60,562 nucleotides of DNA from a virus (Duplodnaviria; Caudoviricetes): positions 1-60,562 of the IMG/VR virus record IMGVR_UViG_3300002052_000004. One strand, given 5' to 3'. The position numbers and the translations under genes were made by a program. Position 1 is the first letter of the stretch. The number at the start of each line of letters is the position of its first letter. Below the pieces are notes generated by a model. That model worked only from the letters and a program-made list of their open reading frames with translations. It searched no databases and had not been told where the DNA came from. Below, piece after piece: positions 1 through 49,821 of the stretch.

Positions 1-94
1 GCGGCTAAACTGGAGAGGAGTGTCGGAGCTGTTCCAGCGGAAGTTGCATCACAATTAGCTTTCTGGAAAACACAGAGAGATATTCATATGGGGT
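1..94. repeat. Terminal direct repeat, copy 1 (circular overlap)
   Basis: Bases 1-94 are identical to 60469-60562. Confidence 0.97.
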
Positions 95-9122: not shown

Positions 9123-9419
9123 ATGGAATTGTTGAACGAAACATTTGAAGTAGAGACAAAGAAAAGCAAAGAATACACATTTGTTGCACAGAAAGGTCTT
9201 TCGGGAATGGATGTGTACGCCAAAGTTAACCCAACAGAGACCCAACTTTCACCAAGTGGAGTATCCATTGAAGTGACAAAGAAAGGAAAGATAGTTCGCG
9301 AGATACAACTGAAAAATGTAGCATTTGCCATTGGCAATGCTGAAGGTACCTACAAAGTAATAATTAAGAACAAGAATCCACTGACGGTGACAGGAACTGT
9401 AAGAGTAGTGACTGTATAA
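9123..9419 (+). CDS. Hypothetical beta-rich protein between the Cys-rich tail protein and the radical SAM gene
   Basis: RBS GGAGGT; stop overlaps the radical SAM start (TAATG). Confidence 0.7.
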   Translation: MELLNETFEVETKKSKEYTFVAQKGLSGMDVYAKVNPTETQLSPSGVSIEVTKKGKIVREIQLKNVAFAIGNAEGTYKVIIKNKNPLTVTGTVRVVTV

Positions 9420-10543
9420 TGGTCTGGCAAAGTCTCTCGTTGCACACGTCAAAGCGGTGCAGCCTGAGATGCAAATACTGTTTTCTAGATAAGAACCCTG
9501 AGGATGCTGACTGGAGTACACTAAAGGCAACCCTCGATTGGTGGTTCAAAGTTACCGGACAGAAGACTCATGTACACATCTTTGGGACAGAACCATTGAT
9601 TCGGTATGACCTGCTTCAGAATGTGTTTGAGTATGCAGACTTGTTAGCAAAGAGAACTAAGAAAACATTGACTAAGGGTATTACTACGAATGGAGTAGGG
9701 ATGACTAGAAGTGTAGCTAATTGGTTGACTAAGAATAAGGTGTCTTGCTTGTGTAGTATTGATGGCATGAGAGAGCAGCACGACAAATACAGAGTGTTTC
9801 CAAGCGGGAAGGGTAGTTGGGGTATTGTAAGTTCAAACTTTCGACGCTGGGTAAGTATGAACCCAAATGCTGAAGCGGCCATGACTGTAACACCAGATAG
9901 CATCCCGAAGCTTGCAGAGAATGTTGATGCTATCTACAAGTTGGGATTCTGGGCAGTTGCACTAAATAAATGTGTTGATTCGGGACCAACGTACACCAGT
10001 GAGGATTTTAAGGCTTTATCTCTTGCTTTCCGAAGGGTTAATGACTTGATTATCAAGTATGCTAAGAAGAAGGTGAAGAAACACATTATGTTCATCTCTA
10101 ACATGACAATTAAAAGAGCTCAAGGACGAGCAGTGAAGAATATAATGACATCCTGTGGTGCGGCAAAAGGTTCACTTGCTGCAGACATTTATGGAAAGAT
10201 ATACATTTGCCATAGGGGAGTGTTCGATTACGGAACATTCGGGGTGGGCAATGTTTGGGATGGGTTGGATATGCAGAAGATTCAGGAGTGGCGAGCCAGA
10301 AGAAATAGTCATTGTCTGCACTGTAGAATGGTGGAATGTTCTCCATGCTATGTTATCAATTTTATTCGCAACGGAGATGTGATGAAGACTCCATGGGAAT
10401 CATGTGTTTATAACGAGCTAGTACATGAGGCAAGTTATGACTTAGACAGACAGCTTAAGAGAGAGGGTTTGTATAAATGGTATTGTGGTACTCCTCTGAA
10501 ACCTCATCCTGTAATTCAGGTGAGGCAGAGAAATAAACTATAA
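9419..10543 (+). CDS. Radical SAM/SPASM-domain maturase
   Basis: CSLRCKYC (CxxxCxxC), FGTEPL, TTNG, SIDG...HDKYR; C-terminal SPASM-like CGAAKG...DIYGKIYICH...CLHC...CSPC...C. Confidence 0.9.
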   Translation: MVWQSLSLHTSKRCSLRCKYCFLDKNPEDADWSTLKATLDWWFKVTGQKTHVHIFGTEPLIRYDLLQNVFEYADLLAKRTKKTLTKGITTNGVGMTRSVANWLTKNKVSCLCSIDGMREQHDKYRVFPSGKGSWGIVSSNFRRWVSMNPNAEAAMTVTPDSIPKLAENVDAIYKLGFWAVALNKCVDSGPTYTSEDFKALSLAFRRVNDLIIKYAKKKVKKHIMFISNMTIKRAQGRAVKNIMTSCGAAKGSLAADIYGKIYICHRGVFDYGTFGVGNVWDGLDMQKIQEWRARRNSHCLHCRMVECSPCYVINFIRNGDVMKTPWESCVYNELVHEASYDLDRQLKREGLYKWYCGTPLKPHPVIQVRQRNKL

Positions 10544-10555
10544 GGAGGGTGAGAA

Positions 10556-10879
10556 ATGGACATATATCTACTGATGCTGATAGCTGTATGTGCTGGAGCA
10601 GCCGGTCGAACACTCTACCACTATCTGTTCAAAGTGCTAGACAATCCAGGACTGGCCTTTGATAAGAAATACATAGTAACAATGCTTATAGCTGTTCTTA
10701 TGACCATCATGTCGTCACCATTGCTTCTATTGAATGTAACAATTCCTCAAGGGAGCGATGGTTATATTGCAATTGCTACATTCGCCATTGGATGGACTTC
10801 GAACGACGTATTGAATCCACCTGTGTCTTTGGCAGCCAATACAATTACGAAATTGAAGGAGCTCGTGAATAACAAATGA
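10556..10879 (+). CDS. Small membrane protein (holin-like)
   Basis: Two to three hydrophobic helices; end of the late operon. Confidence 0.55.
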   Translation: MDIYLLMLIAVCAGAAGRTLYHYLFKVLDNPGLAFDKKYIVTMLIAVLMTIMSSPLLLLNVTIPQGSDGYIAIATFAIGWTSNDVLNPPVSLAANTITKLKELVNNK

Positions 10880-12221: not shown

Positions 12222-12701
12222 CTAACTTTCACTGAGTCTTTTCACTCGTTCGATTTGTCTATCAAGCCAATTCGGTGCATCTACGTTCACACCGAGTTCC
12301 TTCAACTTTTCTAATGTCTCTACAATCTCCGTTGGTATCGGTGTCATGTTAAAATCGGCATCCTTTATCTGTCTGTTCAGTGTTCTCATGAGGAACGCAA
12401 CTTCGTTGGAACGTTTCACTTCCCCAACGATTTTCTTCTGTTGAACTATCCGTTGGTTAAAGTGCTCTAAACGCTCCTGCAAGGTTGTTTTCTCAGTGTC
12501 CACATCTTCTAACTGTCTAAGTACCTTCTGTCTTTCCGTGAGAAGTATCTCGAGTCTTATCTCCTCATCACTTACAGTTGGTGAGGACACGGCAGCTTTG
12601 AGAATCCTCTCACACACCTGACTCATATTTATGTTGAGTTCTTTGCAGCGCGCGACAAGGTCTTCATCTAAGTAGAGAGTTGTTGTCTTCTTCCTTCCCA
12701 A
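12222..12701 (-). CDS. Ribbon-helix-helix (CcdA-like) protein with coiled coil
   Basis: KKTTTLYLDEDLVARCKELNINMSQVCERIL N-terminus. Confidence 0.65.
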   Translation of the reverse strand: MGRKKTTTLYLDEDLVARCKELNINMSQVCERILKAAVSSPTVSDEEIRLEILLTERQKVLRQLEDVDTEKTTLQERLEHFNQRIVQQKKIVGEVKRSNEVAFLMRTLNRQIKDADFNMTPIPTEIVETLEKLKELGVNVDAPNWLDRQIERVKRLSES

Positions 12702-14889: not shown

Positions 14890-15642
14890 TCATATGTTCG
14901 CTAGCCCCTTCATCTTCATGAATGTCTTCTCCCCGATACCTTCCATGACTAGGACTTGTGATGGATTATACTTTATCGCGTGCAGCACTCCAAACAGCCC
15001 GCCGAATTTCTTAACCAATCTTATCGCTAACTTAGGTGAGATATCCAGAGCTCTCGCCACAACAGCAACTGACCGAACTCGACTGTACTCTTTAAGTTTC
15101 TTCCTCTTTGGCATCAGCAATTTCCCCTCTTCGACCTTCTCCGCCACCTTTATAATTTCTTCGAGCCATTCTTCCGCAGGTTGCTCGGTCCAAATTAAAT
15201 TCATATCATACCTGACTACAGTCGCACCAATTGCGCCGTAAATCGAATTCCTATTGAGCGTCTGTTTGCGCTTAGCGAACTGCTCCTCCACGGTCACAAT
15301 CTTACCTGTGACCAAGAGGAATCCAATACGCTTATACGCAGAACACTGTGCATACATTCTGTTAAGTTGTTTGAATAACCTCGGAGTTTCTCCGCGTCTC
15401 GCGAATATAGAGTTAACCAAGTCGCCGACATCTTTTCTCTCAAAGACACACATCGGTGATGCAAAGTCTCCAACAGTCAGTGCCATCTGCTTAAATCCTC
15501 TCTTTATCGCAAGCTTCCGAATATCTAATGGCTCGCGTGAATCAACAAACATCTTCAGCATATTTCCACCTCCAGCTAATACTGTACCCACATCGACCAC
15601 AGTGAGCTCCTCCAGTTGTGCAGTATAGTTCTCGTGAACCAC
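14890..15642 (-). CDS. ERCC4/XPF-type nuclease with HhH domain (likely start 15561)
   Basis: VDSRE...VGDF...FERK motifs; C-terminal MEGIGEK helix-hairpin-helix. Confidence 0.85.
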   Translation of the reverse strand: MVHENYTAQLEELTVVDVGTVLAGGGNMLKMFVDSREPLDIRKLAIKRGFKQMALTVGDFASPMCVFERKDVGDLVNSIFARRGETPRLFKQLNRMYAQCSAYKRIGFLLVTGKIVTVEEQFAKRKQTLNRNSIYGAIGATVVRYDMNLIWTEQPAEEWLEEIIKVAEKVEEGKLLMPKRKKLKEYSRVRSVAVVARALDISPKLAIRLVKKFGGLFGVLHAIKYNPSQVLVMEGIGEKTFMKMKGLANI

Positions 15643-16046: not shown

Positions 16047-16709
16047 TCACTTGACAGGGTCAACAACTCCTGCGGCATCGAACCCTTTCTTTCTCTGTAC
16101 ACAGGCATTACACTTCCCACAGGGATGTTCTTTGCCTTCATAGCACGACCAAGTCTTCTCCCATGGAGTTCCCAGAGCTTCTCCTCGCAGGACTATCTCA
16201 CACTTCGTATCATCTATCAGTGGTACAACAACATGTGGTTTATCTCTTGAGCCGTATCGTAACATTACATTAATTGCATTAACATACGTAGGTCTTGTAT
16301 CTGGGTATCCTCCACTGTCAATCCAATTGAAGCCTGTGTAGATTTCCTTTGCTCCAACGACTTCCGCTACTGCCGCGCATAGTGCGAGGAAGATTGTATT
16401 CCTCATCGGTACGTATGTAAGTGCGCTGCCAGTCTTCTCCCAGACATCTTCATCCTCCTCATGTTCAGGCACATCAATGGTCTCGTTCGTTAACGCGGAA
16501 CCACCAATTTGTCTAAGGTCAATCTTTATCACCTTATACAGTACATTATAGTGCTTTGCGAGTTTCGCTGCCGCATTCATCTCTTTCTCGTGTCTCTGTC
16601 CGTAGTCAAAGGTTACTGCGAGAACATTCACTGCGTCGTGATGTCTCACTGCTAATCCAAGTGCGACTGCACTGTCCATTCCACCACTAAGCATTACTAT
16701 TGCTTTCAA
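16047..16709 (-). CDS. queC: 7-cyano-7-deazaguanine synthase
   Basis: SGGMDS, FDYGQRH, TYVPMRN, YPD, TWSCY...CGKCNAC. Confidence 0.95.
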   Translation of the reverse strand: MKAIVMLSGGMDSAVALGLAVRHHDAVNVLAVTFDYGQRHEKEMNAAAKLAKHYNVLYKVIKIDLRQIGGSALTNETIDVPEHEEDEDVWEKTGSALTYVPMRNTIFLALCAAVAEVVGAKEIYTGFNWIDSGGYPDTRPTYVNAINVMLRYGSRDKPHVVVPLIDDTKCEIVLRGEALGTPWEKTWSCYEGKEHPCGKCNACVQRKKGFDAAGVVDPVK

Positions 16710-17008
16710 GACTTTTCACCTCCCTTTACGCTTTTCTTTTCTGTTTCCTTCGTTTCCTCGGTTTTCGGAGGCTCTACAACTTTAGGTACCGGTGTAGGTT
16801 TAAGGAATGCTAGTAGCTCCTCCGAAAGTTCCTTCTCCAGTTTCTTCACTGTCGCAGTTATCTTCCTTTCCTTTGCTTTCCCGTCAAGTCCAGTCGTGTT
16901 TACGGATTCGAACTTCTCTGCTGGAAGACTAACTGTCACTCGTGTTGTATTTGCCGCCGTAATTACTTTCTTTACTTCATATTGCATATTCTCACCTCCT
17001 TGTTCCAT
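16706..17008 (-). CDS. Hypothetical protein
   Basis: ORF within the que cluster; RBS GGAGGTGA before an internal Met. Confidence 0.55.
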   Translation of the reverse strand: MEQGGENMQYEVKKVITAANTTRVTVSLPAEKFESVNTTGLDGKAKERKITATVKKLEKELSEELLAFLKPTPVPKVVEPPKTEETKETEKKSVKGGEKS

Positions 17009-17576
17009 ATATCAACTTTAGTGCCTCGTTTCTCGGTGGTTCAAAGTTGAGAAAGACCCCCCGTACTGCGTTTGTCACGGTGTACGCATTCGTATGTGCT
17101 GGCATACCGTAATCAAACTTTCCTCCGACTAACATGCAGGTATGCGTCCCTTCGATAACTACCATGCATCCAAGTGGTTCGAGACATTCATCGATTACAT
17201 CTGCCAACTCCGTATTCATTCCCTCCTGTATCTGTGGTCGCTTAGATATCGCTCGAACAGCACTAACGAACTTTGAAAGTCCGACAATCTTCTTGTGCGG
17301 AATGTACGCGATGTGTACTTTACCAAAGAACGGCCAGAGATGATGACAACACATAGAGACGAACTCTATATCCTTCACGATTACCATCTCACCGTGTTCG
17401 ACAGACAATGGTCGCTCAAAGAACTTCCTAATATCGATGCCAACTCCTGCTGTCATGTCCTTATACAGGTCAACAATCCTCCTCGGTGTCTCCTCCAACT
17501 CGTCAGTGAGCTCTATGCCACAACATAGCAGTAGGTCTCTCGCTTTACGTTCCTTTTCTTTCTGTGTATGCTCCAA
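16992..17576 (-). CDS. folE: GTP cyclohydrolase I
   Basis: ETPRR, SMCCHHLWPFFG, GLSKF, PQIQE, HTCM. Confidence 0.95.
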   Translation of the reverse strand: MEHTQKEKERKARDLLLCCGIELTDELEETPRRIVDLYKDMTAGVGIDIRKFFERPLSVEHGEMVIVKDIEFVSMCCHHLWPFFGKVHIAYIPHKKIVGLSKFVSAVRAISKRPQIQEGMNTELADVIDECLEPLGCMVVIEGTHTCMLVGGKFDYGMPAHTNAYTVTNAVRGVFLNFEPPRNEALKLIYGTRR

Positions 17577-17769: not shown

Positions 17770-18462
17770 TCACCTCCCTCTCGCTCCGTGCCATAATAGC
17801 TTGTGTAACTGAGGAAGTATGCGAATATTCCGTCCGTTCTCCTGCACCCAGCTGATAATCTTCTTCATCAGTTCGAGGTCATTATCGACAGGCTGAATAC
17901 ATACCTGTTCGAAGTTATACTTATAATCAAGTCGTTTCACTACTGTAAAGTCTGTTTCGTTAGCTACGACGAACTTAAACTCTGCGATACCTGTAGCTCT
18001 GAATTCCTTTATTATAGCAGTGCTGAACGTTTCGCCGGATGAGGGTAACTTCGGGGAAACTACCCAGTGAGTCGGCGACCATTCCTTCGATGGACTCTTC
18101 GTACAGTTCGTCTCAATATGTACTTTCATGTAGAAGAGCCGCTCCATTAATTCAGTTAAATTTTGAACAAGTGGCTCTCCGCCTGTAATGACCACCATCG
18201 GTTGCTCTAGTCTCAACACCTCTCTCGCGATGAACTCCTCAGATAGTTCTAAATGGTCACCTCTATATGCATACTTCGTGTCACACCATTTGCAACGCAA
18301 ATTACATCCATAGAGTCTTATAAACGTACACGGTGTACCTATGTAGAACCCTTCACCCTGTATAGACTTGAATATCCCACCTCTCACGATTTTAAGCAAT
18401 CCCATACCTCCTCGAATAATAACCTGAGTACCTTCCACCAAGACGGCGTACGAAATGTCCAA
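17770..18462 (-). CDS. queE: 7-carboxy-7-deazaguanine synthase (radical SAM); likely start 18405
   Basis: SIQGEG, FIRLYGCNLRCKWCDT, ITGGEP, IETN, SPK, PQLHK. Confidence 0.95.
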   Translation of the reverse strand: MDISYAVLVEGTQVIIRGGMGLLKIVRGGIFKSIQGEGFYIGTPCTFIRLYGCNLRCKWCDTKYAYRGDHLELSEEFIAREVLRLEQPMVVITGGEPLVQNLTELMERLFYMKVHIETNCTKSPSKEWSPTHWVVSPKLPSSGETFSTAIIKEFRATGIAEFKFVVANETDFTVVKRLDYKYNFEQVCIQPVDNDLELMKKIISWVQENGRNIRILPQLHKLLWHGARGR

Positions 18463-27179: not shown

Positions 27180-27692
27180 CTAACCCTCATGTTGACAGAT
27201 GTGTGCTGTCACACTACTCACACCTGCTTTATATCCTTCCAAGTATGCTTCTGAAACAATTGCGTTCTTCGCTAACTGTCGGAGGAGTGCAAACTCCGCG
27301 GACGGATATTCAACTTGCGCGTGGAGACCTTTCTGTTTCCAGCTATCCTTCTTCTGGTCATTTATTCCAGAGAGAACTCTCTCAAGCGTACTACCAGACA
27401 AAGTTCCATTTATCGCTTTCTCAATAGCGCTTTGCCTATTCTTCATCAAAGTTCGTAGGAACTTCTTGTGCTCCTCATATGGGTTTTCTGAGAACGTCTT
27501 GTAGTGACACTCGAGACACAACAACCGGCAATTTTCCATCTTAATGTTCGAATTATCTCCATCAGCATGATGTCTATGGAAGCCTTGAACCAATGGATTG
27601 AAGCACGTGCTGTTTGCACACACTCCATCTTGTTTCTTAAATACTTCATCAACTATCCACTGTGGAAAGTTCTTTCTTGTCTTCTCGCTCAT
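27180..27692 (-). CDS. HNH endonuclease with helical C-terminal extension
   Basis: RKNFP...KQDGVCA...C...HHADGDNSN...NCRLLCLECH; RBS GGAGGTGA places the start at ATG 27692. Confidence 0.85.
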   Translation of the reverse strand: MSEKTRKNFPQWIVDEVFKKQDGVCANSTCFNPLVQGFHRHHADGDNSNIKMENCRLLCLECHYKTFSENPYEEHKKFLRTLMKNRQSAIEKAINGTLSGSTLERVLSGINDQKKDSWKQKGLHAQVEYPSAEFALLRQLAKNAIVSEAYLEGYKAGVSSVTAHICQHEG

Positions 27693-27729
27693 ACATTTCA
27701 CCTCCAGCTCTCGAGTGGTCATACGTTGG

Positions 27730-28680
27730 CAGGTCGGTAACATGGTCTCTGCGGAGACCGCTCATGCTGAGTTTTCACAAGACCACATCCTGAGGGTCAC
27801 TCAGGCAAGTCATGTCTCTGGGGCTATGCGTTGGGTGCCAGAGCTCTCAGCATAGGAGTTTCTTTCACCTCCCTCGTAGAGCGCATCACTCTACTAGTTA
27901 CCCCGCTGTGCGGCCACTTATACCCCGTTCGTTACCTTATGAGGGATTATCCCACATTGGTATGCCTACCTGTGCAGTCTAAAGGACCTTCTTGATTCGG
28001 AGTCTTCCAGGTGTGTTACCTAGTCAACCCATGCCTTCAAGAAGGGGGTGTTTCCTTCATACTTTTGCAGTGGGCCTTTGTTGGGCAGCTTCTCGGTGCT
28101 GCGACCTCCCTAATACAACCCTCTCCGAGCCGGTCCGGAATCAAACCCGAACCAGAGGGTTGCCTCGCTTGCCGCACGGATTCCCGAGCTGCCTCTCAAC
28201 GAGGGCATATGGGAAGCACGGTACTCGAGGTCGTGCTTTCAGCCATGTACTAAGTAACTGCGTCCTGCATGAGGTGGCGTCTTACGACGTAGGCCTCTCG
28301 ACAGCTACGCAATTACTCAGCCCTTTCTCCTCACCAGGTGGGGCTTCCAACGACCTTTCACGGATGATGCACAGCGTACCGACCTGACCTCACGCGCGCA
28401 TACGTGTGTAGTTCATCCAGGTTTTCAAGGCCAGGAATCTACCTTTTTCACAGCGACTTTGGTTCGGTCGTGCATTATGGACATGCTCTTTAATCGGATT
28501 ATTTAGCTGCACATCGACCTATCTCGGCTGGGGTGAGCCAAACCGAGTTTAGTTTAAATAATGGGAAGGTTAATGGTGTCCTGGTTAGCGAGGCTAAATG
28601 CCAAAGTGACTCCCTCAAACTTACAACTCTAAGGCTGAGATGGTCACTGGAGTAGCTTTCTCGACCAGAACATCCATTTC
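27730..28680 (-). ncRNA. Candidate large structured non-coding RNA
   Basis: Gap of ~950 bp with no credible ORF and many complementary segments: 27730-27739/28377-28386, 27764-27771/27846-27853, 27970-27976/28368-28374, 28116-28124/28154-28162; GNRA-type loops on the - strand. Confidence 0.65.
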
Positions 28681-28690
28681 ATCTCTGTAC

Positions 28691-29932
28691 TTACTGTACT
28701 GGTGTCGCTTCTGGCATTACGACAGTCTGCTCCTCTGGCGCAGTTCTGAATATCGGTATAGCCCATATGGCTACGGCATTCAAGTTGACTCTCTGTACGT
28801 CTGGTAGCACCTCTCTCTTCTCCCGATCATACCCTGGTCCAATGTTCGTTCGGCCAACTACATAGACTCTCGAATCTGGTCCGAAGGTATCTATGACATG
28901 CTTCAACTCCGTTGGTACCCAGCAAGGTGTTCCCTCTGCTCCAAGGTCTTCTTTGCTTACATCCTCCAATACCATCATGTAACTCCCGTAATCCGTTGGT
29001 GTCCTGTTTATCCAAGTCACGTCAGCTTCGACGATGACTAGCCGTCTCTTGTCGTTCTTGTTTGCATTATGCCAGGCCATCAGTTCGTCTAACGAGCTTT
29101 TCAATGCTTCCGGCGCTGTTTGGAATATCTTGATTATCCTCTCCGTGGTTATTGGTTCATACTCCGGAAGCACTATCGGCTCAAACCGTGCCTGTGTTGA
29201 CCAGTTCATATGATATATATTCGGCGTATCACTCGACAAGTTCAACCTCGTTCGGAATCCCTTTCCGAGTGGCGGCATTGGTAACTCATTCGGGTCTCCT
29301 GCATTGCACATCGTTGCGAGGAGTTTGAAATTCCCTCCCCCCGCTGGTCTACCGAAGCTTAAGAGAGTTCGAATATACCTCGGAAGTAACGGCTTTCCAT
29401 AACTCGGGCTCTTTCTTCCTTTGACATTCTTCTCCGGGTCAGGTTTAACCATCCATTGTCTAGTATCTAACGGTGTCCCTGCTGGATAAACTTTGTCGCC
29501 GAACTGTGTATCCTCTCCGAGGACTTTCTTCTCAGCAACTGCTTGTGCTCTTGTCTCTTCGTTTGCATATAAATCCGCTTTCTCTTCCCTCTCTGAACGT
29601 GTTACGTCAATCGCTCCTGAGAGGCCCAGAGTGATGTAGTCGTAAGGTTTTGCTGGTGAACGCAGTGACGATTTAATCTTAAGGTAAACTCTGTGCCTTG
29701 CGGTACTGTCATACCACTCGGCAGTTTTCCCTGCAACGCCTTGTTTGAATATCGCTAGTTGCTCCTCGTACATCTTAGTTAGCTCAGCAAATGGTTTCCC
29801 TAGGGCTTGTGACCACGCTGTTAACTTCGCCAAAGTCTCCGCTGGCACAGCTGGTGCGGTTGGTGCAACTGGTACTGCTGCCGTTTTTTCTTCTTCTACA
29901 CTCATGGCGTTTTTCACCTCCTGTCCTGCCAT
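28691..29932 (-). CDS. Putative single-stranded DNA-binding (RPA/OB-fold) protein
   Basis: C-terminal OB-like segment (VIVEADVTWI...MVLED...CWV...FGPDSRVYVVGRT); located in the replication module. Confidence 0.5.
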   Translation of the reverse strand: MAGQEVKNAMSVEEEKTAAVPVAPTAPAVPAETLAKLTAWSQALGKPFAELTKMYEEQLAIFKQGVAGKTAEWYDSTARHRVYLKIKSSLRSPAKPYDYITLGLSGAIDVTRSEREEKADLYANEETRAQAVAEKKVLGEDTQFGDKVYPAGTPLDTRQWMVKPDPEKNVKGRKSPSYGKPLLPRYIRTLLSFGRPAGGGNFKLLATMCNAGDPNELPMPPLGKGFRTRLNLSSDTPNIYHMNWSTQARFEPIVLPEYEPITTERIIKIFQTAPEALKSSLDELMAWHNANKNDKRRLVIVEADVTWINRTPTDYGSYMMVLEDVSKEDLGAEGTPCWVPTELKHVIDTFGPDSRVYVVGRTNIGPGYDREKREVLPDVQRVNLNAVAIWAIPIFRTAPEEQTVVMPEATPVQ

Positions 29933-30276
29933 TATGTGACTATGATATGTGTCCTGCAGTACTCAAAAATACTATGCTCATCTACTGCAGTGCACATTTT
30001 GAAAATGCACCCACATTTACATTCGTATACTTCCATTTGCGCGGAACATGTCGGGCATACAATAACACTATTCGGTGGGTGTAGAAATCTTGCTACGACA
30101 AAATAAAAGTACCGCCCATCCCTCGTGCGGTCGAGTCTCCGACCTTCATAAGCCCTTTGTACAAGTCTCCTCGTCGCACGATAACTTAATCCTAACTTCG
30201 GCGTGAGTTCCTCTATCTTCCACGCTGTGCGGAACATTAACCGCTCCCATTCTACTCTCCGCTTTTCTCTCGCCAA
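29932..30276 (-). CDS. Winged-helix plus Zn-ribbon protein
   Basis: IEELTPKLGLSYRATRRLV...RTRDGRYFYF; CPTC...CKC. Confidence 0.6.
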   Translation of the reverse strand: MAREKRRVEWERLMFRTAWKIEELTPKLGLSYRATRRLVQRAYEGRRLDRTRDGRYFYFVVARFLHPPNSVIVCPTCSAQMEVYECKCGCIFKMCTAVDEHSIFEYCRTHIIVT

Positions 30277-30391
30277 AACCTATCCACCCCGCCAATAGGT
30301 GTTATCATATAATTAGGAAGAAGCTCCGAAGAGCTTCCTACAACCTCGTTCGTTTGACAATTAGTTCCTTTGTCATCTGAGCTCAACTCAT

Positions 30392-30455
30392 CACCCGACC
30401 AGAAAAAACATTTGGTTTCTGGTTTCGCCAGAATCTCACTGGCTCGTCAGGGGCG
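30392..30455 (-). ncRNA. Hammerhead ribozyme (type I topology)
   Basis: - strand: CGCCC-CUGACGA-GCCAG(UGAGAUU)CUGGC-GAAA-CCAGAAA(CCAAAUGUU)UUUCUGG-UC-GGGUG; complete core and three stems. Confidence 0.9.
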
Positions 30456-30519
30456 TTTCGCCGACCGATGTTTGTACATCGTTAGTGGAATATTCCACCA
30501 CTGTACTCTCACTGGACCC

Positions 30520-30783
30520 CTATGTTCCTACTGGTAGTTTCTCACTATACACATGGAAGTATCGCCAAATGATTTCGGCCAACATGACTATCAAAGGTAT
30601 GACAATGACAAATATCACCCAAGCATAGAGTAGTTCAGCGACTTGTTCTGTTAAGACAAAGGACGGTTCGAACACTGTTCGAAGCGTGTAAATGACGGCT
30701 AAGACCAAACCGATGACTAAGCTGAGAAACTTCGTTCCCATGTGATTAGATTTTGCCTTACTTTCAGACACCGAAGAGTCCAC
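30520..30783 (-). CDS. Small two-TM membrane protein
   Basis: Two hydrophobic helices; RBS GGAGG. Confidence 0.6.
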   Translation of the reverse strand: MDSSVSESKAKSNHMGTKFLSLVIGLVLAVIYTLRTVFEPSFVLTEQVAELLYAWVIFVIVIPLIVMLAEIIWRYFHVYSEKLPVGT

Positions 30784-30856
30784 CTCCTACCACGGGTGCG
30801 TGTACCTCGTGATTGTTACAAAAAGGGGTAGTGAGAGGAGTGGTGAGTCTGCTCAA

Positions 30857-31204
30857 CTACAACCCCTCAGTTTCCTCGGTTTCTTCACCCTCTTCAGTTT
30901 CTTCAGCCTCTACAGCCTCTTCCACTTTCTCTTCCTCCACAGGCGCGAGAACTGGAAGTCCGACTGCGGTCCTAGCTACCCACCAAGAGCGGTTGCCTTC
31001 CCATCCTCTGGTGGCAACGCCGTTTTTCTCCATTCTCTTCAGACGAGAGAAGGCAGTGCCATTCTCAACGCCTAGAAAGGCGGCAACCTCTTTGGTCGTG
31101 TGCATCTCTTTGCTAAGGTATTCGAGCAATTTCTCGTTGCTCACCTTGCTTATCTGAGGCTTGGACTCCTGAAGATTCTTGAAGTCCCCTAGAGCTTTTG
31201 GCAT
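30857..31204 (-). CDS. Winged-helix protein of the MPK(S/A)L paralog family, with acidic tail
   Basis: RBS AGGAGGTGA before ATG 31204; TTKEVAAFLGV...RLKRMEKNG; Glu-rich C-terminus. Confidence 0.75.
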   Translation of the reverse strand: MPKALGDFKNLQESKPQISKVSNEKLLEYLSKEMHTTKEVAAFLGVENGTAFSRLKRMEKNGVATRGWEGNRSWWVARTAVGLPVLAPVEEEKVEEAVEAEETEEGEETEETEGL

Positions 31205-31271
31205 AGATGTTTCACCTCCTTGTGACCATGCAGAGTCTATGCGACTCGCATTAAGTCTTACCCTGACCAGA

Positions 31272-31285
31272 TTTATAAATCTTTC
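31272..31285 (-). promoter_or_regulatory. Archaeal BRE-TATA promoter (GAAAGATTTATAAA)
   Basis: Purine-rich BRE plus TTTATAAA; near-identical copies at 31396-31411 and 37668-37683. Confidence 0.65.
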
Positions 31286-31375
31286 TGTTCGGGGTAAGAG
31301 TGCAATGTGTGAACCATCAAACGTTTCCAACAGCTACCCAATCCTCCACGTCGTCTTTTGTAGCAAGTGATGTGA

Positions 31376-31750
31376 CTAATCTTTACCTGAACTTTTATTT
31401 AAATCTTTCCGTTCAATGTTGGGGTTCCACAAATTGAGGAACTTTTCCGAAAGCATATATCGGAGAGGCCCTGATTTATTTCTTCTTATCCACGTCAGGA
31501 CGCCTTTATCTCCAAGCAAATGAAGCACAGTCAATATATTCGACCGAGACTTTCCGTATACGGCGTAGAATACATTCGTGGTCACGATATTCAACCCCAT
31601 CTCACGCAACGCCAAGAATATCTTTACCGAGCGTACTTGGGCGGATGATATCCTACTAAGTTTCATCTTCTTCAGCGTGAAATGTATCTTCACATCGTCG
31701 ATTTTACGCATCTCCGCCTTTATCTCTCCAACTATCTCTTCGTCTTTCAC
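31376..31750 (-). CDS. Putative winged-helix DNA-binding protein
   Basis: KSRSNILTVLHLLGDKGVL...RYMLS. Confidence 0.55.
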   Translation of the reverse strand: MKDEEIVGEIKAEMRKIDDVKIHFTLKKMKLSRISSAQVRSVKIFLALREMGLNIVTTNVFYAVYGKSRSNILTVLHLLGDKGVLTWIRRNKSGPLRYMLSEKFLNLWNPNIERKDLNKSSGKD

Positions 31751-34901: not shown

Positions 34902-35578
34902 TTAATCCTCATCCTCCACCTTTTTCTTCGCCAATACACTCTTTCGATACTCCTTTGATTGCTTACCGTGCTTCTTCATATGCCTACCGATACCACCGAC
35001 TTTACTGCCCGGTTGCGGTACGCGAATTGTACATCGTCCAGGGTATCCGTGAACAACTCTATGCTCTTGCTCAGTATACTCAGTCAATACCTTCTCTCTT
35101 TCTCCTTCTATGTGATGCCCTAATCTTTTCTTCCAGAGCTCCGTAAAGTGGTCTTCTGACTTAGCTGGCGTTGATACAACTATAGCCTTCGGTAAGTCCT
35201 TCCCGCGTAACTGTCGCCACCAACGTTTAAGCGTTTCTTTAATTGTCATGCTCTATACCCCAAGTTCTTTCCACGTAGCTTCTCGAAGAACTCTTGCATC
35301 TTTTGCCGTCGTTCCTCTGCTTTCTTCGCCATTATCTTGTAATACTCTGGCTCATATTTCTTGAACCACTGGTCAATCTTTACTATAGACCAGTAATCCA
35401 TAGTCAGTACATCCGCTAATGCCATAGCTACATTAAATGGCATTTCCACTCTCTGAATCACCGACAATATCATGTTGAGCAATGCTTGTCTATGTGCATT
35501 GAGGCACTCAAGGCAAGTGAGTGCATCTGCTTTCGGCGCACTACAATCTGCGTGTTCTTCGAATTGACAATTCTTCAT
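34902..35578 (-). other. Two hypothetical CDSs (34902-35249, 35246-35578)
   Basis: Translationally coupled ORFs. Confidence 0.55.
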
Positions 35579-35955
35579 TCTATCACCTCTAGTACCTTTA
35601 TACTTCCGAACGATATATTCTTCTCGAGGAACTCTTTGAGTCCTGCTGTCATCCGCTTATACTTAAACACCGGCGGAGCTTTCCCATTCCGTGTTGTGTC
35701 AAGTACCATATGGTACAAGTCAGCTATCTCAAGCGTTGGATGCCGCGGTAACATTTCACCTTGCCGACAAGCCGCGCAACCAAAGAGCACTAACTTATTC
35801 TGGAACTTTCTACTCCCTTCGTATCTAGCGGTCAGTGATAAGTTGTGACACCACGGGCAAGTCCACGGTCCTGTTTTCATAATCCTTCTATAACGAGCTT
35901 GTCGCGCAAGAATTATCCTTCGTCTAAGGTCAGGTACTTTACTCTTCTTACCCAC
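35575..35955 (-). CDS. Elf1-like Zn-ribbon transcription elongation factor
   Basis: Basic N-terminus MGKKSK, WTCPWC...CAAC, LEIADLYHMVLD (compare Elf1 EPxDVYxxWxD). Confidence 0.55.
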   Translation of the reverse strand: MGKKSKVPDLRRRIILARQARYRRIMKTGPWTCPWCHNLSLTARYEGSRKFQNKLVLFGCAACRQGEMLPRHPTLEIADLYHMVLDTTRNGKAPPVFKYKRMTAGLKEFLEKNISFGSIKVLEVIE

Positions 35956-36733
35956 CGTACTTCACCCTCGTGCCTTTAACACTCACTCCTGTAATCAGTT
36001 TGAGATACCCTCGGAGAGAGACTGTCACGCTGGCAATCTGCTCATCCGAGAGTATCGCTGGAGGGTTGAATGTCGTAACCACATTTATCTGGTAGAGCAC
36101 GTGCATCTTCGTGCCGCAAATCGGGCAGAGCCACTCTACTGTCTCACTGGGGACGTTATCCGCATGGAGACATTTTGAGCATCTAATCGTGAACGGCATT
36201 CTTTCAATTTCTCCTTTAGTGCTTCCTTCGTTGGTGCTTGAATAACAAAGCCACAGAGACAAATGTAGACAACATGTGTTCGGTGTCTCTTTACCTTACC
36301 GTCTCTTCCACACTTCGGACACTTCTTTCTCCTCGAGTGCCTTAATCTCTTCATTTAAACATTCTCCCTCGCCGGACATCCTGGTTTCTTGAACATATCA
36401 CACAACAGTTTCCGACAGTTTCCCTCTTTGTTAGTCGACCAGTTCGGGAAGTGTGGACACTTAGTTGACAAATCCAATATCGAACGCTGTTGTTTCTTCT
36501 TCACCCCTTTCTGTGGCTTATCCGTGAGATAGAAAAAGAAATCAACATCTTTCGGCATTTGTTCTCCTCCAGTTGCTTTTCGAGTCGCATGTTTTACATA
36601 CAGCGTTCGTTGCAGCTTCCAGTAGAGCCTTCGTGCCTCTAATCCTAACAGTAGAGTATATTCCTGCGCCACATTCACTGCACACATTGTACGCTCTTGG
36701 CAGTTTCCCCATTACTCTTCTCTCTCCGTCCAA
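35948..36733 (-). other. Small Zn-finger and hypothetical CDSs
   Basis: Overlapping ORFs with CxxC pairs. Confidence 0.45.
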
Positions 36734-37668: not shown

Positions 37669-38154
37669 TTATAAATCTTTCCGTCCACGTTCAAGCCTCG
37701 TACACACGAACTTATATGCTCGTTTCGCTCGAGGAGTAAATCTCTTAATGTACTCCTTTATACGTTCCAACTCCCGTGTTGTATACTGCCGTTCAGCATT
37801 ACTTAAATGTTTCGATATTACTTTCAGGCGTGAATCGATATATGGTAATATAAACATCACAGCTTCACGTTTTATGACGAGATATGGTAAGAGTGTTTCG
37901 AGGAAATGTTTACATACTGGCAACTGGTAAACATAGAAGATGAATCCAGTATTTGCTTTTGTTATAAGACCTCTTGGAAATCGTTGTTTTATCAACTCTA
38001 ACACTAGTCGGTGCTGATTGCTGATTGAAATCTGTACTCGCAGGTACTCGCAATGTGGACTTGCAACGTGAATAGACCCTTCTCCATCGAATATTCCAGC
38101 GATGTATTCTACCGATAACATATTTGTTCCACATTTAATCCTTGGATGGAACAA
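37669..38154 (-). CDS. LAGLIDADG homing endonuclease (single motif; likely start 38121)
   Basis: YIAGIFDGEGSI motif, LLPYLVIKRE. Confidence 0.88.
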   Translation of the reverse strand: MFHPRIKCGTNMLSVEYIAGIFDGEGSIHVASPHCEYLRVQISISNQHRLVLELIKQRFPRGLITKANTGFIFYVYQLPVCKHFLETLLPYLVIKREAVMFILPYIDSRLKVISKHLSNAERQYTTRELERIKEYIKRFTPRAKRAYKFVCTRLERGRKDL

Positions 38155-44072: not shown

Positions 44073-44090
44073 TATATATAAATTTTTTGA
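44073..44090 (-). promoter_or_regulatory. BRE-TATA promoter of the early operon
   Basis: TCAAAAAATTTATATATA about 30 nt upstream of the 44045 start. Confidence 0.55.
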
Positions 44091-48360: not shown

Positions 48361-49821
48361 TTGCCAGTAACGAGAAAATTCCTGTCAAGTCTCCCTCCAA
48401 GGAAGGTGCAATTACAAGATACAATCAGTGGTCCGCCGATAATTCAAGCTCTAGAGTCCGCACTTCAACCAATGCAAGGGACTAGGAATCGTTATAAGAC
48501 TTACCAGAGTTTTCTTCGAATGGACCCAGAGATAAATAACGCCGTGACGAGACTTTCTCTACTTGTACAGTTCGCGTACAAAGGTGTAGTCATTCGTGCA
48601 GGGAAAGAACTCACTACAGACGAAGAGACATTGCTGAAAAATGCAAAGGACTTTGCAAAAACCATGGACTTCCGTGGAAGATTCTTCTACATTGCGAAAC
48701 ACCTTCTCCGTGATGGTGATGAAGTTTTCGTTACACACACGGATAATGCTGCAGCAGCCAACCTTGGTGTGCAACAAATTCAACCGTTGCCGATTACGAA
48801 GTTAACAGGAGTGACCGATGAGGGTCAGATAGGTAAAACAGATACAAATATCGTCGGTCCTGCAATGATTTACGTAGTGAATGAGAGCGACGAGTCAAAG
48901 CGACAAAAGTTCCCACAGAATGATAAGCAGAAAGTATATCATGTCGCATTGGATAATCATGCTGAGGAAATATATGACAACATGGGAAGATACACTTTCG
49001 GTGTTTGGTCAGAAAGTCCCTTAGAAGCTCTTCGTACGAGGGTTCTCTGGAAACAAGCGATACTTATCGCAGACATTCTCTGGCGATATAGAAATGTGCC
49101 GAGAGAGGTGCATGAACTTGACGTGTCGATGTTTAAACCAGAGGATTTCACAGGAGAAACCCCTGCTGCACGATTGTCAAACTACCAGACAGCTATACGA
49201 GCCTACCTTAGAGCGTACGCGGATGAGATTAAGAAGAAGAAAGTTGACCAAGGGTATGTTATCCCATCAGGTACGAAGATTTACTACACTGAACCGAAAC
49301 GCGTTGCGTACACTTCACCGAATGAAGTTATTGACCAGATTAATGAGAGTATTATCAAAGGGTTGTCTGCATATGACGTTGAAGCGGGAACATATGCGAC
49401 GGCACTTGTTGTGAGTTCATATGTCGTACTTCTGCCAGACTTGATAGCTGTGAAGATTAAGGACATCCTTCTAGAGGTTCTTAAAATGCATTTACGCAAG
49501 AAACACAATACGACAGATGAAAATCTCGAGAAGGTTGATATTAGGATTTCACTGGTACTTGACATCTTCAGAGGAGAACTAATTCGTCAAATGGCATTGC
49601 TCGCTGCAACAGGAACGCAAACAATCGATGAGTTGCGTGATTATATCGGACAAGACCCGATAACTGATAAGCAAGCTGAGCGGCTCATAGAAATTGTCGG
49701 TAAAGGTCGCAGTGGGCAATATGTGCAAACTCTTCTTGACTTACTCCGTGATTCTGAACGGAGAACAGAACCTCGGGAAACTACTCCTGAGTCGAAGAGA
49801 GAAATACAGGAAACCACTTAA
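48361..49821 (+). CDS. Portal protein
   Basis: 486 aa directly after terL; MDPEI, LLRDGD, GVWSESPLE, TIDELR. Confidence 0.8.
   Translation: MPVTRKFLSSLPPRKVQLQDTISGPPIIQALESALQPMQGTRNRYKTYQSFLRMDPEINNAVTRLSLLVQFAYKGVVIRAGKELTTDEETLLKNAKDFAKTMDFRGRFFYIAKHLLRDGDEVFVTHTDNAAAANLGVQQIQPLPITKLTGVTDEGQIGKTDTNIVGPAMIYVVNESDESKRQKFPQNDKQKVYHVALDNHAEEIYDNMGRYTFGVWSESPLEALRTRVLWKQAILIADILWRYRNVPREVHELDVSMFKPEDFTGETPAARLSNYQTAIRAYLRAYADEIKKKKVDQGYVIPSGTKIYYTEPKRVAYTSPNEVIDQINESIIKGLSAYDVEAGTYATALVVSSYVVLLPDLIAVKIKDILLEVLKMHLRKKHNTTDENLEKVDIRISLVLDIFRGELIRQMALLAATGTQTIDELRDYIGQDPITDKQAERLIEIVGKGRSGQYVQTLLDLLRDSERRTEPRETTPESKREIQETT

Follow-up and report, generated by a model that had tools for sequence, protein, structure and literature searches.

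A type I hammerhead ribozyme in an intergenic gap of an uncultured, probably archaeal tailed virus

The minus strand at positions 30455 to 30392 of the window, by which we mean the whole 60,562-nt stretch analyzed here (IMG/VR record IMGVR_UViG_3300002052_000004), carries a complete type I hammerhead motif lying between genes of the same orientation. We put at roughly 0.8 the probability that it is a genuine hammerhead that self-cleaves and processes the minus-strand transcript. The initial annotation had proposed a hammerhead at this place, and direct reading of the sequence reproduces all of its coordinates (Table 1). Hammerheads in archaeal tailed viruses and in phage operons are already published (PMC3088659; Halorubrum virus Serpecor1), and the present ribozyme adds a well-supported case to a known type without being a new kind of element.

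The invariant core is complete (C3 U4 G5 A6 N7 G8 A9, G12 A13 A14, N16.2 U16.1 H17), with zero deviations from the consensus; the C3/G8, G10.1-C11.1 and A15.1-U16.1 pairs are all present, and stems I, II, and III comprise 5, 5, and 8 bp, respectively. The elements follow one another in the type I permutation, that is, the 5′ strand of stem I, CUGANGA, hairpin II, GAAA, hairpin III, UH, and the 3′ strand of stem I, with stem I open and stems II and III capped by loops. The stem III hairpin (30398-30423) has a 10-nt loop, and a run of six U residues is found at 30408-30403. Folded alone, the 64-mer reaches its energy minimum (-20.7 kcal/mol) in precisely the hammerhead junction, which is retained in a 171-nt context. 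An 81-nt slice shortened on the 3′ side adopts a competing fold instead, and its energy does not stand out (z = -1.24; 25 of 200 shuffles are equally good). Misfolding is also conceivable from the inverted repeats, in which CCAG/CUGG recurs in stems II and III, and a GGCG-AAA-CGCC hairpin (30462-30452) could occupy four of the five bases needed for stem I. The 171-nt fold further predicts a possible extension of stem I (30383-30464) to about 11 pairs across a tandem G.A plus A.A internal loop. In hammerheads, fast cleavage is supported by a tertiary contact of stem I with loop II; here loop II is of the class-consensus type, and the predicted extension would place a possible internal loop in stem I. 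A reading of the GUGAUGA stretch as a C/D-box sRNA was rejected, with the sR12 model giving just 12.3 bits and no CUGA box following.

Table 1. Coordinates of the ribozyme, its parts and the neighboring features in the window
Feature	Positions	Strand	Basis
Type I hammerhead ribozyme, minimal form with 5-bp stem I	30392..30455	-	sequence, descriptor, R1, MFE fold
Stem I, 5′ strand CGCCC	30455-30451	-	sequence
Core CUGACGA (C3-A9, N7 = C)	30450-30444	-	sequence
Stem II GCCAG/CUGGC	30443-30439 + 30431-30427	-	sequence
Loop II UGAGAUU	30438-30432	-	sequence
Core GAAA (G12, A13, A14, A15.1)	30426-30423	-	sequence
Stem III hairpin ACCAGAAA/UUUCUGGU, 8 bp including A15.1-U16.1	30423-30416 + 30405-30398	-	sequence; inverted repeat
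GUC triplet	30399-30397	-	sequence
Stem I, 3′ strand GGGUG	30396-30392	-	sequence
Predicted cleavage site, C17 (30397) / G1.1 (30396)	30396..30397	-	hammerhead consensus applied to sequence
Possible extended stem I, UCGGC-GA-A-A-CGCCC with GGGUG-A-U-GA-GUUGA	30383..30464	-	MFE fold, 171-nt context
Upstream gene, 87-aa protein with two hydrophobic segments	30520..30783	-	ORF
Two hairpins between upstream stop and ribozyme	30466..30498	-	inverted repeats and fold
Next long downstream gene, 114 aa from TTG 30276 or 101 aa from ATG 30237	29932..30276	-	ORF
Unsupported 44-aa ORF; its GGUGA-4nt-UUG ribosome site coincides with stem I 3′ strand	30252..30386	-	ORF
Two tandem BRE/TATA-like promoter motifs (GAAAGATTTAWAWA)	31272..31409	-	motif scan; about 820-950 nt upstream of ribozyme

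A chance origin of the motif is unlikely. Our own type I descriptor, in which the conserved core is mandatory, matches exactly one site in the window, both strands included. In its loose form (stems of at least 4/3/4 bp), it is matched by 2 of 300 and by 13 of 1500 dinucleotide shuffles, and in a strict form that is still looser than the real stems (5/5/6), by none of 1500. We trained a covariance model, R1, on 80 distinct viral type I hammerheads, leaving out the window; it gives 56.6 bits (E = 4.1e-17) at 30392-30455, a score to be read with the fact that its training set was gathered by a pattern seeded from the core and loop II of this very motif. The runner-up site in the genome reaches 11 bits, and by R1 the genome holds a single hammerhead copy. 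In scans with hammerhead covariance models, the check proposed with the initial annotation, the viral class model matched the site and no Rfam family reached its gathering score. That Rfam thresholds are unmet, and that no conserved counterpart was found in the loci reached, are points in favor of an inactive look-alike, either fortuitous or decayed. We regard this as highly improbable in view of the shuffles and the R1 score just given, the consensus state of every core position, and the behavior of Rfam itself: for six clear members of the viral class described below (L002, L003, L005, and L136 to L138), the same Rfam models give no match at E<=0.01, so the subthreshold score here reflects model coverage and not a defect of the motif.

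The best Rfam match also raises the question of register. Over 30470-30417, Hammerhead_3 reaches 29.6 bits (E = 1.2e-4), and taken at face value it would describe a type III hammerhead cutting at an upstream GUC (30465-30463), with GGCG-AAA-CGCC as stem I and stem III open. This is hardly credible. The score lies far under the gathering value of 48.5 and derives from the common core and stem II; the stem III pairs of this register are nonstandard and number only three (ACC/GGU), with a C bulged at position 2.1 beside the core, and the GUC at 30465-30463 would itself be taken up by stem I if that stem is extended, whereas the type I reading has perfect stems of 5 and 8 bp and the high class-model score. 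The type I topology is shared with Rfam Hammerhead_1 (RF00163) and RAGATH-1-hammerhead (RF03152). Of these, Hammerhead_1 is absent from the output, in which only the best overlap within a clan is kept and Hammerhead_3 outscored it. RAGATH-1-hammerhead gives a partial match in the type I register over the 3′ two-thirds (19 bits against a gathering score of 56.3, E = 0.19), with its 5′ element (model positions 1-22) unmatched in the window.

Judged by its sequence, the type I hammerhead of the window belongs to an abundant viral class. The core-plus-loop pattern matched at least 120 stretches in IMG/VR, and 135 of the 144 core-pattern matches are type I hammerheads located between genes, although stems I and III were not part of the search pattern. 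IMG/VR contigs contain at least 135 type I copies whose core, stem II, and loop II are near-identical to those of the window. Among 99 distinct class members, N7 is C in 29, as it is here, and UGAGAUU, the commonest loop variant, is found in 56. The stems covary across the class, both sides changing in 11 of 14 pairs in an alignment whose rows were pre-selected for pairing. The class has a characteristic layout: in 92 of 113 contexts, the upstream stop codon ends -2 to 0 nt from stem I, and the following start codon comes at about 19 to 39 nt from the cut (median 27.5 nt). The window departs from this layout: 64 nt separate the stop codon from stem I, and the next long ORF starts 120 or 159 nt past the cut, or 10 nt if the unsupported 44-aa ORF is real.

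Relatives of the virus were reached through several of its proteins. Three contigs whose TerL is 55% to 57% identical (L136, L137, and L138) carry hammerheads directly after gene stop codons; those of L136 and L137 occupy the same site just past the portal gene, with different stems. Within this one TerL-defined lineage the intergenic sites vary, a pattern that fits repeated gain and loss better than it fits a fixed regulatory site. The 413-aa protein encoded downstream of the window ribozyme has three homologues besides itself in the protein collection, two of them 62% and 57% identical and encoded on contigs of 16.5 and 11.3 kb, and a single-sequence search of viral contigs with it found no relative. 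An alignment-based viral scan with the same protein reached two distant loci that lack a hammerhead of the class, the best R1 score there being 10.4 bits. The one related virus reached through this gene (32% identity; a 55.9-kb record, 93% complete) has no hammerhead of the class (0 matches). A metagenome scan returned one identical 1364-nt contig that ends short of the ribozyme. Four DNA runs contain the stretch or parts of it, three from marine-sediment metagenomes and one from a seawater metagenome, and one of the four may itself be where this DNA came from. A contig from a second sample is identical across the site, and the contigs of these runs, showing no differences across the ribozyme, offer no natural covariation. 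No RNA run containing the virus was found in the sequencing-run search. Against 50,697 phage records, blastn queries with 5 kb surrounding the site and with the 64-mer gave no match, nor did tblastn of the portal protein against phages, and the literature search found no paper on this particular virus.

Examination of the surroundings of the ribozyme agrees with the earlier description of its position and orientation. It lies in a 243-nt gap downstream of the 87-aa gene (stop codon TAG, 30522-30520), one of the larger gaps in a tightly packed block whose ORFs, from about 12 to 44 kb, all lie on the minus strand. The 87-aa protein has holin and 7tm matches, all subthreshold. Two upstream hairpins had been described, and both exist: CGAUGU/ACAUCG pairs 30481-30476 with 30471-30466 around the loop ACAA, and the second is a palindrome, GUGGAAUAUUCCAC, at 30498-30485, for which the arms originally given (GUGGAA/UUCCAC) imply a 2-nt loop that cannot form, the predicted fold having a 4-nt loop instead. 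The labels of winged-helix and SSB genes for the downstream neighbors found no support: searches of Pfam, PHROGs, and PDB sequences returned no match for the 114-aa or the 413-aa protein, and the 413-aa protein, the one of the two covered by the NCBIfam scan, matches nothing there either; its AlphaFold model is unusable (mean pLDDT 43). The weak HTH matches come from a 157-aa ORF two genes upstream, not from the downstream genes.

Candidate transcription signals are located on both sides of the ribozyme. The BRE/TATA-like motif has three exact copies on the coding strand, and 12 matches at up to two mismatches compare with 4.65 ± 2.24 in shuffles; no recurrence of the motif was found further downstream in the minus-strand block. 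A perfect TTTATATA stands 37 nt ahead of the first gene of the block. Between the ribozyme and the 114-aa gene there is a weak TATA-like element, ATTATATG, at 30313-30306, at the same 37-nt distance before TTG 30276. In the interval 29800-31400, one sigma-70 promoter was predicted against 1.6 in shuffles, at or below expectation, and two intrinsic terminators against 1.1, a count likewise reported as at or below expectation.

For the preferred reading, we propose the following course of events. The minus-strand block would be transcribed through the gap after the membrane-protein gene, and the RNA would fold as a three-way junction and self-cleave 3′ of C17 (30397/30396). The 5′ product would retain nearly the whole ribozyme and end in a 2′,3′-cyclic phosphate, and the 3′ product, which leads into the 114-aa and 413-aa genes, would start with a 5′-hydroxyl at GGGUGAUGAG. 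A short message for the regulator and the membrane protein would thereby likely be split from the downstream genes, so that one half could be more stable or better translated than the other. For intergenic phage hammerheads, too, the proposed role is to process long viral transcripts (PMC3088659).

The same ribozyme may act at the end of the upstream unit rather than as an internal processing site. It could make the 3′ end of the regulator and membrane-protein unit, or insulate that unit by trimming read-through, while the 114-aa and 413-aa genes are expressed mainly from their own downstream promoter. Archaeal transcription is terminated by oligo-T tracts, and in an archaeal host the U6 run within stem III could add termination at almost the position of the cut. 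This arrangement, which we consider rather unlikely, would suit the comparatively large gap in a packed block, the unusual distance of the ribozyme from the next long ORF relative to the class, and the spacing of the element at 30313, which equals that of TTTATATA. That element, however, lacks the GAAAGA BRE-like half common to the three exact motifs and is unmatched at up to two mismatches, and the class as a whole sits just 5′ of start codons. A different role for the cut would be that of a translation gate, in which the 3′ strand of stem I (GGGUGA) followed by UGAG-UUG forms the ribosome site and start of the 44-aa ORF (30386-30252), hidden while paired and exposed at the cleaved 5′ end. 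The 4-nt spacing between GGUGA and the start is the modal one in the genome (10 of 26 GGTGA sites, with a TTG start at 7 of 26), and Shine-Dalgarno (SD)-like motifs precede 63 of 94 starts compared with 19.5% of control positions. Within the class, L136 and L137 have GGAGG after GUC and then 8 to 9 nt to an ATG, and an SD-like motif lies within stem I in 4 of 113 contexts (for example, L015). Against the gate stands the ORF itself, which has no homologue, is not a called protein in a set of 5.8 billion proteins, and passes through a strong UUCG-capped hairpin; its two matches in a representative library were dismissed as one chance match of about 27 bits repeated inside repeat proteins. In addition, an extended stem I of about 11 pairs, if real, would not be released spontaneously after cleavage, and the motif was spotted post hoc, all of which leaves the gate distinctly improbable. 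We give similarly long odds to a combined device in a probably archaeal virus, with partial termination at the stem III oligo-U (30408-30403), a cut of the read-through RNA 6 nt downstream, and a 5′-OH RNA that starts exactly at the ribosome site locked in stem I (GGGUGA-UGAG-UUG). If true, a span of about 80 nt would link the termination and processing of the transcript to the unmasking of a small ORF for translation.

Published work on phage and halovirus hammerheads counts in favor of the preferred reading of a self-cleaving, transcript-processing ribozyme. According to Perreault et al. 2011 (PMC3088659), intergenic hammerheads of prophages cleave in vitro and in vivo, and in the haloviruses HF1 and HF2 a mapped transcript 5′ end lies within 3 nt of the hammerhead cleavage site. 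The phage and prophage hammerheads of that article resemble the one in the window in having a consensus core and a place between co-oriented genes of tailed-virus operons. They are also alike in that several related viruses have ribozymes at varying intergenic sites. The window differs in having a single genome copy and not a gene-flanking cluster, in the 64 nt and two hairpins that precede stem I, and possibly in an extended stem I.

Among tailed viruses of haloarchaea, hammerheads are reported as HHphage of HF1 and HF2 (PMC3088659) and in Serpecor1, which is also covered by PMC7230728. In Serpecor1 (MN901521.1), the annotated ncRNA at 63562-63629 is a type II hammerhead (RF02276, 39.1 bits against a gathering score of 37) lying 12 nt ahead of a helicase start. 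Like the window, these are archaeal or probably archaeal tailed viruses in which the ribozyme belongs to an early or replication-side block, shares the orientation of the genes there, and occupies the space that separates a small gene from the one after it, and the gene repertoires are similar (PolB, a PD-(D/E)XK nuclease, an ERCC4 nuclease, HNH, and many small proteins). The ribozymes themselves differ, the one in the window being type I with a fully consensus core, the Serpecor1 copy type II, and the HF1 and HF2 copies marked by atypical core insertions, as described in PMC3088659. The contexts differ as well: family searches found no helicase among the neighbors of the window ribozyme, and no RtcB ligase, which Serpecor1 encodes, was found among the window ORFs scanned.

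The present case therefore adds one hammerhead to the ribozyme catalogue of uncultured tailed viruses, probably an archaeal one, and leaves the knowledge of hammerheads unchanged in kind; the biological role of such viral ribozymes is so far a proposed one. It also bears on annotation practice: since the Rfam models miss the abundant viral type I class at curated thresholds, routine annotation under-reports the class.

An archaeal host for this uncultured marine-sediment tailed virus appears probable from its gene content. The TerL is of the MJ0330_N type (PF27249). Among the tblastn matches of PolB, haloarchaeal tailed viruses give the best coverage, with about 21% identity, and by structure PolB lies nearest a cluster that is 88% Archaea, the other neighboring PolB clusters being bacterial. 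Hef/Xpf-like nuclease matches were also obtained, far under the cut-offs. A TerL profile run against 185,579 species genomes found no provirus, hence no direct host link. The BRE/TATA-like motifs count toward an archaeal host, and the strong SD use fits both domains.

The minus strand at 30455-30392, in the gap between the 87-aa membrane-protein gene and the 114-aa gene, reads CGCCC-CUGACGA-GCCAG-UGAGAUU-CUGGC-GAAA-CCAGAAA-CCAAAUGUUU-UUUCUGG-UC-GGGUG. As the initial annotation had observed, with all its coordinates correct for the minus-strand sequence, this is a hammerhead with a full core and three stems. The invariant positions are complete (C3-A9, with N7 = C; G12, A13, A14, and C17), the closing pairs G10.1-C11.1 and A15.1-U16.1 are both present, and stems I, II, and III comprise 5, 5, and 8 bp, respectively. 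The open helix is stem I, which makes the permutation type I; the cut is predicted to fall after 30397 and before 30396. Folded alone, the 64-mer adopts precisely the hammerhead junction as its minimum-energy structure (-20.7 kcal/mol). A fold of the 171-nt context retains this junction and lengthens stem I through a tandem G.A plus A.A internal loop into a second 5-bp helix (span 30464-30383), while an 81-nt slice without the 3' partner of the extension takes another fold of ordinary energy (z = -1.24, matched by 25 of 200 shuffles). Stem I has a competitor in a GGCG-AAA-CGCC hairpin (30462-30452), and the repetition of CCAG/CUGG in stems II and III makes misfolds possible. The two hairpins previously described upstream also exist, but the loop of the palindrome GUGGAAUAUUCCAC is necessarily of 4 nt and not of 2 nt as had been implied. 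The identity of 30455-30392 as a hammerhead is well supported, and we infer its cleavage and function from the sequence.

Our own type I descriptor, applied to both strands of the window with dinucleotide shuffles as controls, matches exactly one site. Loose stems of 4/3/4 bp were matched in 2 of 300 and 13 of 1500 shuffles, and stems of 5/5/6 bp, which are looser than the real ones, in none of 1500. In the scan with hammerhead models that had been proposed, none of the 4227 Rfam families matches the window at curated thresholds; Hammerhead_3 and RAGATH-1-hammerhead appear below threshold. The best match in E-value mode is Hammerhead_3 (29.6 bits vs a gathering score of 48.5). Its register, which cuts at the upstream GUC (30465-30463) and takes the GGCG-AAA-CGCC hairpin as stem I, was rejected, since the core and stem II, common to both registers, account for the score; in this alignment the stem III pairs carry a non-standard flag, and next to the core there is a bulged C. 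RAGATH-1-hammerhead aligns the type I register once the upstream part is removed (19 bits, E = 0.19). The sub-threshold result reflects model coverage, because the same library at E <= 0.01 misses plain type I hammerheads elsewhere, leaving unreported those at the pattern sites of viral loci L002, L003, and L005 as well as those of L136-L138, the contigs with terminase relatives.

The near-exact pattern CTGACGAGCCAG-N5-9-CTGGCGAAAC was found in four IMG/VR contigs, none of which has protein homology to the window; three carry a complete type I hammerhead with a stop codon before and the next start after it, and in the fourth the match is cut off by the locus end. A broader pattern, in which nothing beyond the core and the first five bases of loop II was fixed, matched at least 120 IMG/VR stretches. 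Of the 144 matches in the fetched loci, 135 are accompanied by both a stem I (3 bp or longer) and a stem III hairpin that ends in U-H, and 9 lack this arrangement; both stems lay outside the search pattern. For the 99 distinct sequences whose stem I reaches 4 bp or more, the base at N7 is U (62), C (29), A (5), or G (3); 56 have UGAGAUU as loop II, and the triplet at the cleavage site is GUC (88) or GUA (11). The window variant is therefore mainstream for the class. In an alignment of the 80 sequences whose stem III spans no more than 24 nt, from which the window was left out and whose rows were pre-selected for pairing, 98.9% of cells pair, both sides change in 11 of 14 pairs, and the covariation score is 0.699 vs 0.171 for shuffles and at most 0.112 for slid partners. 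The covariance model built from this alignment (R1), applied unfiltered to the complete window, scores 56.6 bits at 30455-30392 (E = 4.1e-17); the second-best site reaches only 11 bits (E = 0.33), and this is thus the only hammerhead of its class in the genome.

The search for large-terminase homologues gave 26 beyond the protein itself; every one is metagenomic and carries PF27249. A profile from 21 terminase homologues led to 14 short IMG/VR contigs, and R1 finds hammerheads in three of them (L136, L137, and L138; see the table). In the L138 copy, stem III starts with CCAGAAAC, just as it does in the window. One site, right behind the portal gene, is shared by the L136 copy and the L137 copy at 7338-7400, which differ in stems II and III. 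By tblastx, L136 10574-10783 matches window 49570-49779, and the post-portal site of the window is a mere 14-nt gap in which the R1 scan finds no hammerhead. Hammerheads therefore recur in this viral lineage at changing sites. Stem I has GGAGG as its 3' strand in both L136 and L137, with the ATG of the post-portal gene 8-9 nt on, which places a Shine-Dalgarno sequence within the ribozyme helix. The 413-aa neighbour protein has three homologues. One identical metagenome contig ends before reaching the ribozyme site, a contig of a second sample is identical over it, and a distant relative (32% identity; record 93% complete) gave no hammerhead match.

Upstream of the ribozyme, a 157-aa ORF has weak helix-turn-helix matches, all under curated cut-offs, and the 87-aa protein has two hydrophobic segments; the winged-helix and SSB labels once given to the downstream genes found no support. 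In the minus-strand block, the coding strand carries recurrent copies of a motif, GAAC-GAAAGATTTAWAWA, that look like archaeal-type promoters; those near 31.3-31.4 kb have ~40 nt in common. With up to 2 mismatches the BRE/TATA-like motif gives 12 matches vs 4.65 +/- 2.24 in shuffles (0 of 100 reach 12), and there are no more on the minus strand between 31272 and 12 kb. In the simplest reading, the transcript would begin ~0.8-0.95 kb upstream of the ribozyme and cross two small genes and the ribozyme, then the 114-aa and 413-aa genes. After self-cleavage, the upstream message would retain the body of the ribozyme and end in a 2',3'-cyclic phosphate, and the downstream message would begin with a 5'-OH; such ends are established for the hammerhead family.

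Of 113 distinct class contexts in loci L002-L125, 92 have an upstream stop codon (mostly TAA) that ends no more than 2 nt from where stem I begins (-2 to 0 nt), a coupling to the ribozyme helix that suggests interplay with terminating ribosomes. In the window this distance is 64 nt, and the next long ORF follows after 120 or 159 nt compared with a class median of 27.5 nt. The position is slightly atypical, and these two departures lead to two alternatives. The downstream genes may have their own promoter, with the ribozyme mainly finishing the upstream unit: a weak TATA-like ATTATATG (30313-30306) lies 37 nt ahead of TTG 30276, the same spacing at which a perfect TTTATATA precedes the first gene of the minus-strand block, and in an archaeal host the U6 run in stem III (30408-30403) could contribute termination as well, oligo-T tracts being terminators of archaeal transcription. 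It is unlikely that the bases after the cut serve as the ribosome site of a 44-aa ORF (30386-30252), for which no homologue was found and which is not among the called proteins, although G-GGUGA-UGAG-UUG right behind the cut is the modal ribosome site of this genome. A perfect 7-bp hairpin with a UUCG tetraloop, GAAGCUC-UUCG-GAGCUUC (30320-30337, minus strand), is located 60 nt past the cleavage site and just upstream of ATTATATG.

The proposed processing of a transcript spanning the ribozyme would fit the role suggested for intergenic phage hammerheads in two reports (PMC3088659, PMC6765202). The former, from 2011, describes intergenic hammerheads in phage and prophage operons and, for haloviruses HF1/HF2, a hammerhead that precedes the helicase gene by 13 nt, with a mapped transcript 5' end at most 3 nt from the cleavage site; another names the hammerhead among conserved non-coding features of the HF1 group (PMC7230728). 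The window hammerhead belongs to this already described kind of element. It is type I with a consensus core, whereas the hammerhead annotated in the record of Halorubrum virus Serpecor1 is type II (39.1 bits vs a gathering score of 37). Serpecor1 (MN901521.1) also encodes an RtcB ligase (35158-36522). RtcB joins 2',3'-cyclic-phosphate and 5'-OH ends, the products of a hammerhead cut, and was not found among the window ORFs scanned. Three hammerheads within ~2 kb of L005, an unrelated viral contig (6856-6911, 7524-7579, and 8713-8775), show the clustered arrangement described for prophages.

The virus had been called archaeal, and an archaeal host is indeed probable, with two points neutral or against. 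The terminase family is named for a Methanocaldococcus protein, the best-coverage PolB tblastn matches are haloarchaeal tailed viruses (~21% identity), the gene repertoire is similar to that of Serpecor1, and the ERCC4 nuclease, nearest Hef/Xpf models, and the BRE/TATA-like motifs also count for this host. Of the structural clusters that neighbour PolB, the nearest is 88% archaeal, and the others are viral or bacterial. Strong Shine-Dalgarno use is compatible with both domains and hence neutral, and no provirus was found in species genomes.

Coordinates of hammerheads in terminase-relative contigs and of features in the window
Feature	Position	Strand	Remarks
L136 hammerhead	10826-10876		R1 44 bits; directly follows TAA stop codon
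L137 hammerhead	7338-7400		R1 29.1 and 17 bits for the two L137 copies; starts right behind TAA stop codon
L137 hammerhead	1490-1536	minus	second L137 copy; bases just before without stop codon
L138 hammerhead	1-41		R1 29.6 bits; clipped by contig end; directly after TAA stop codon
BRE/TATA-like motif GAAAGATTTAWAWA	31409-31396 and 31285-31272	minus	exact, tandem
BRE/TATA-like motif GAAAGATTTAWAWA	37681-37668	minus	third exact copy
GAAC-GAAAGATTTAWAWA motif	44075-44088		also listed
LAGLIDADG endonuclease ORF	37669-38154	minus	free-standing; stop codon within a TATA-like motif
HNH endonuclease-like ORF	27180-27743	minus	
QueC	16047-16709	minus	
FolE	16992-17576	minus	
QueE-like	17770-18462	minus	
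ERCC4-domain nuclease	14890-15642	minus	archaeal Hef/Xpf models nearest, far under cut-offs
Protein with antitoxin CcdA-like N-terminus	12222-12701	minus	

The complete 60,562-bp record has direct terminal repeats and represents a tailed virus; it encodes a tail-tube protein, a T4-like portal, a large terminase, and a family-B DNA polymerase. Its genes lie on the minus strand between ~12 and 44 kb and on the plus strand to either side of this block, and its DNA is also present in marine-sediment metagenomes. Genes of 7-deazaguanine (preQ0-type) metabolism are grouped (QueC, GTP cyclohydrolase I [FolE], and a QueE-like radical SAM enzyme), a pathway presumably serving viral DNA modification. 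The plus-strand tail-gene block ends with a radical SAM/SPASM peptide maturase (9419-10543, plus strand), nearest to PapB-type ranthipeptide maturases (183.6 bits vs a cut-off of 340).
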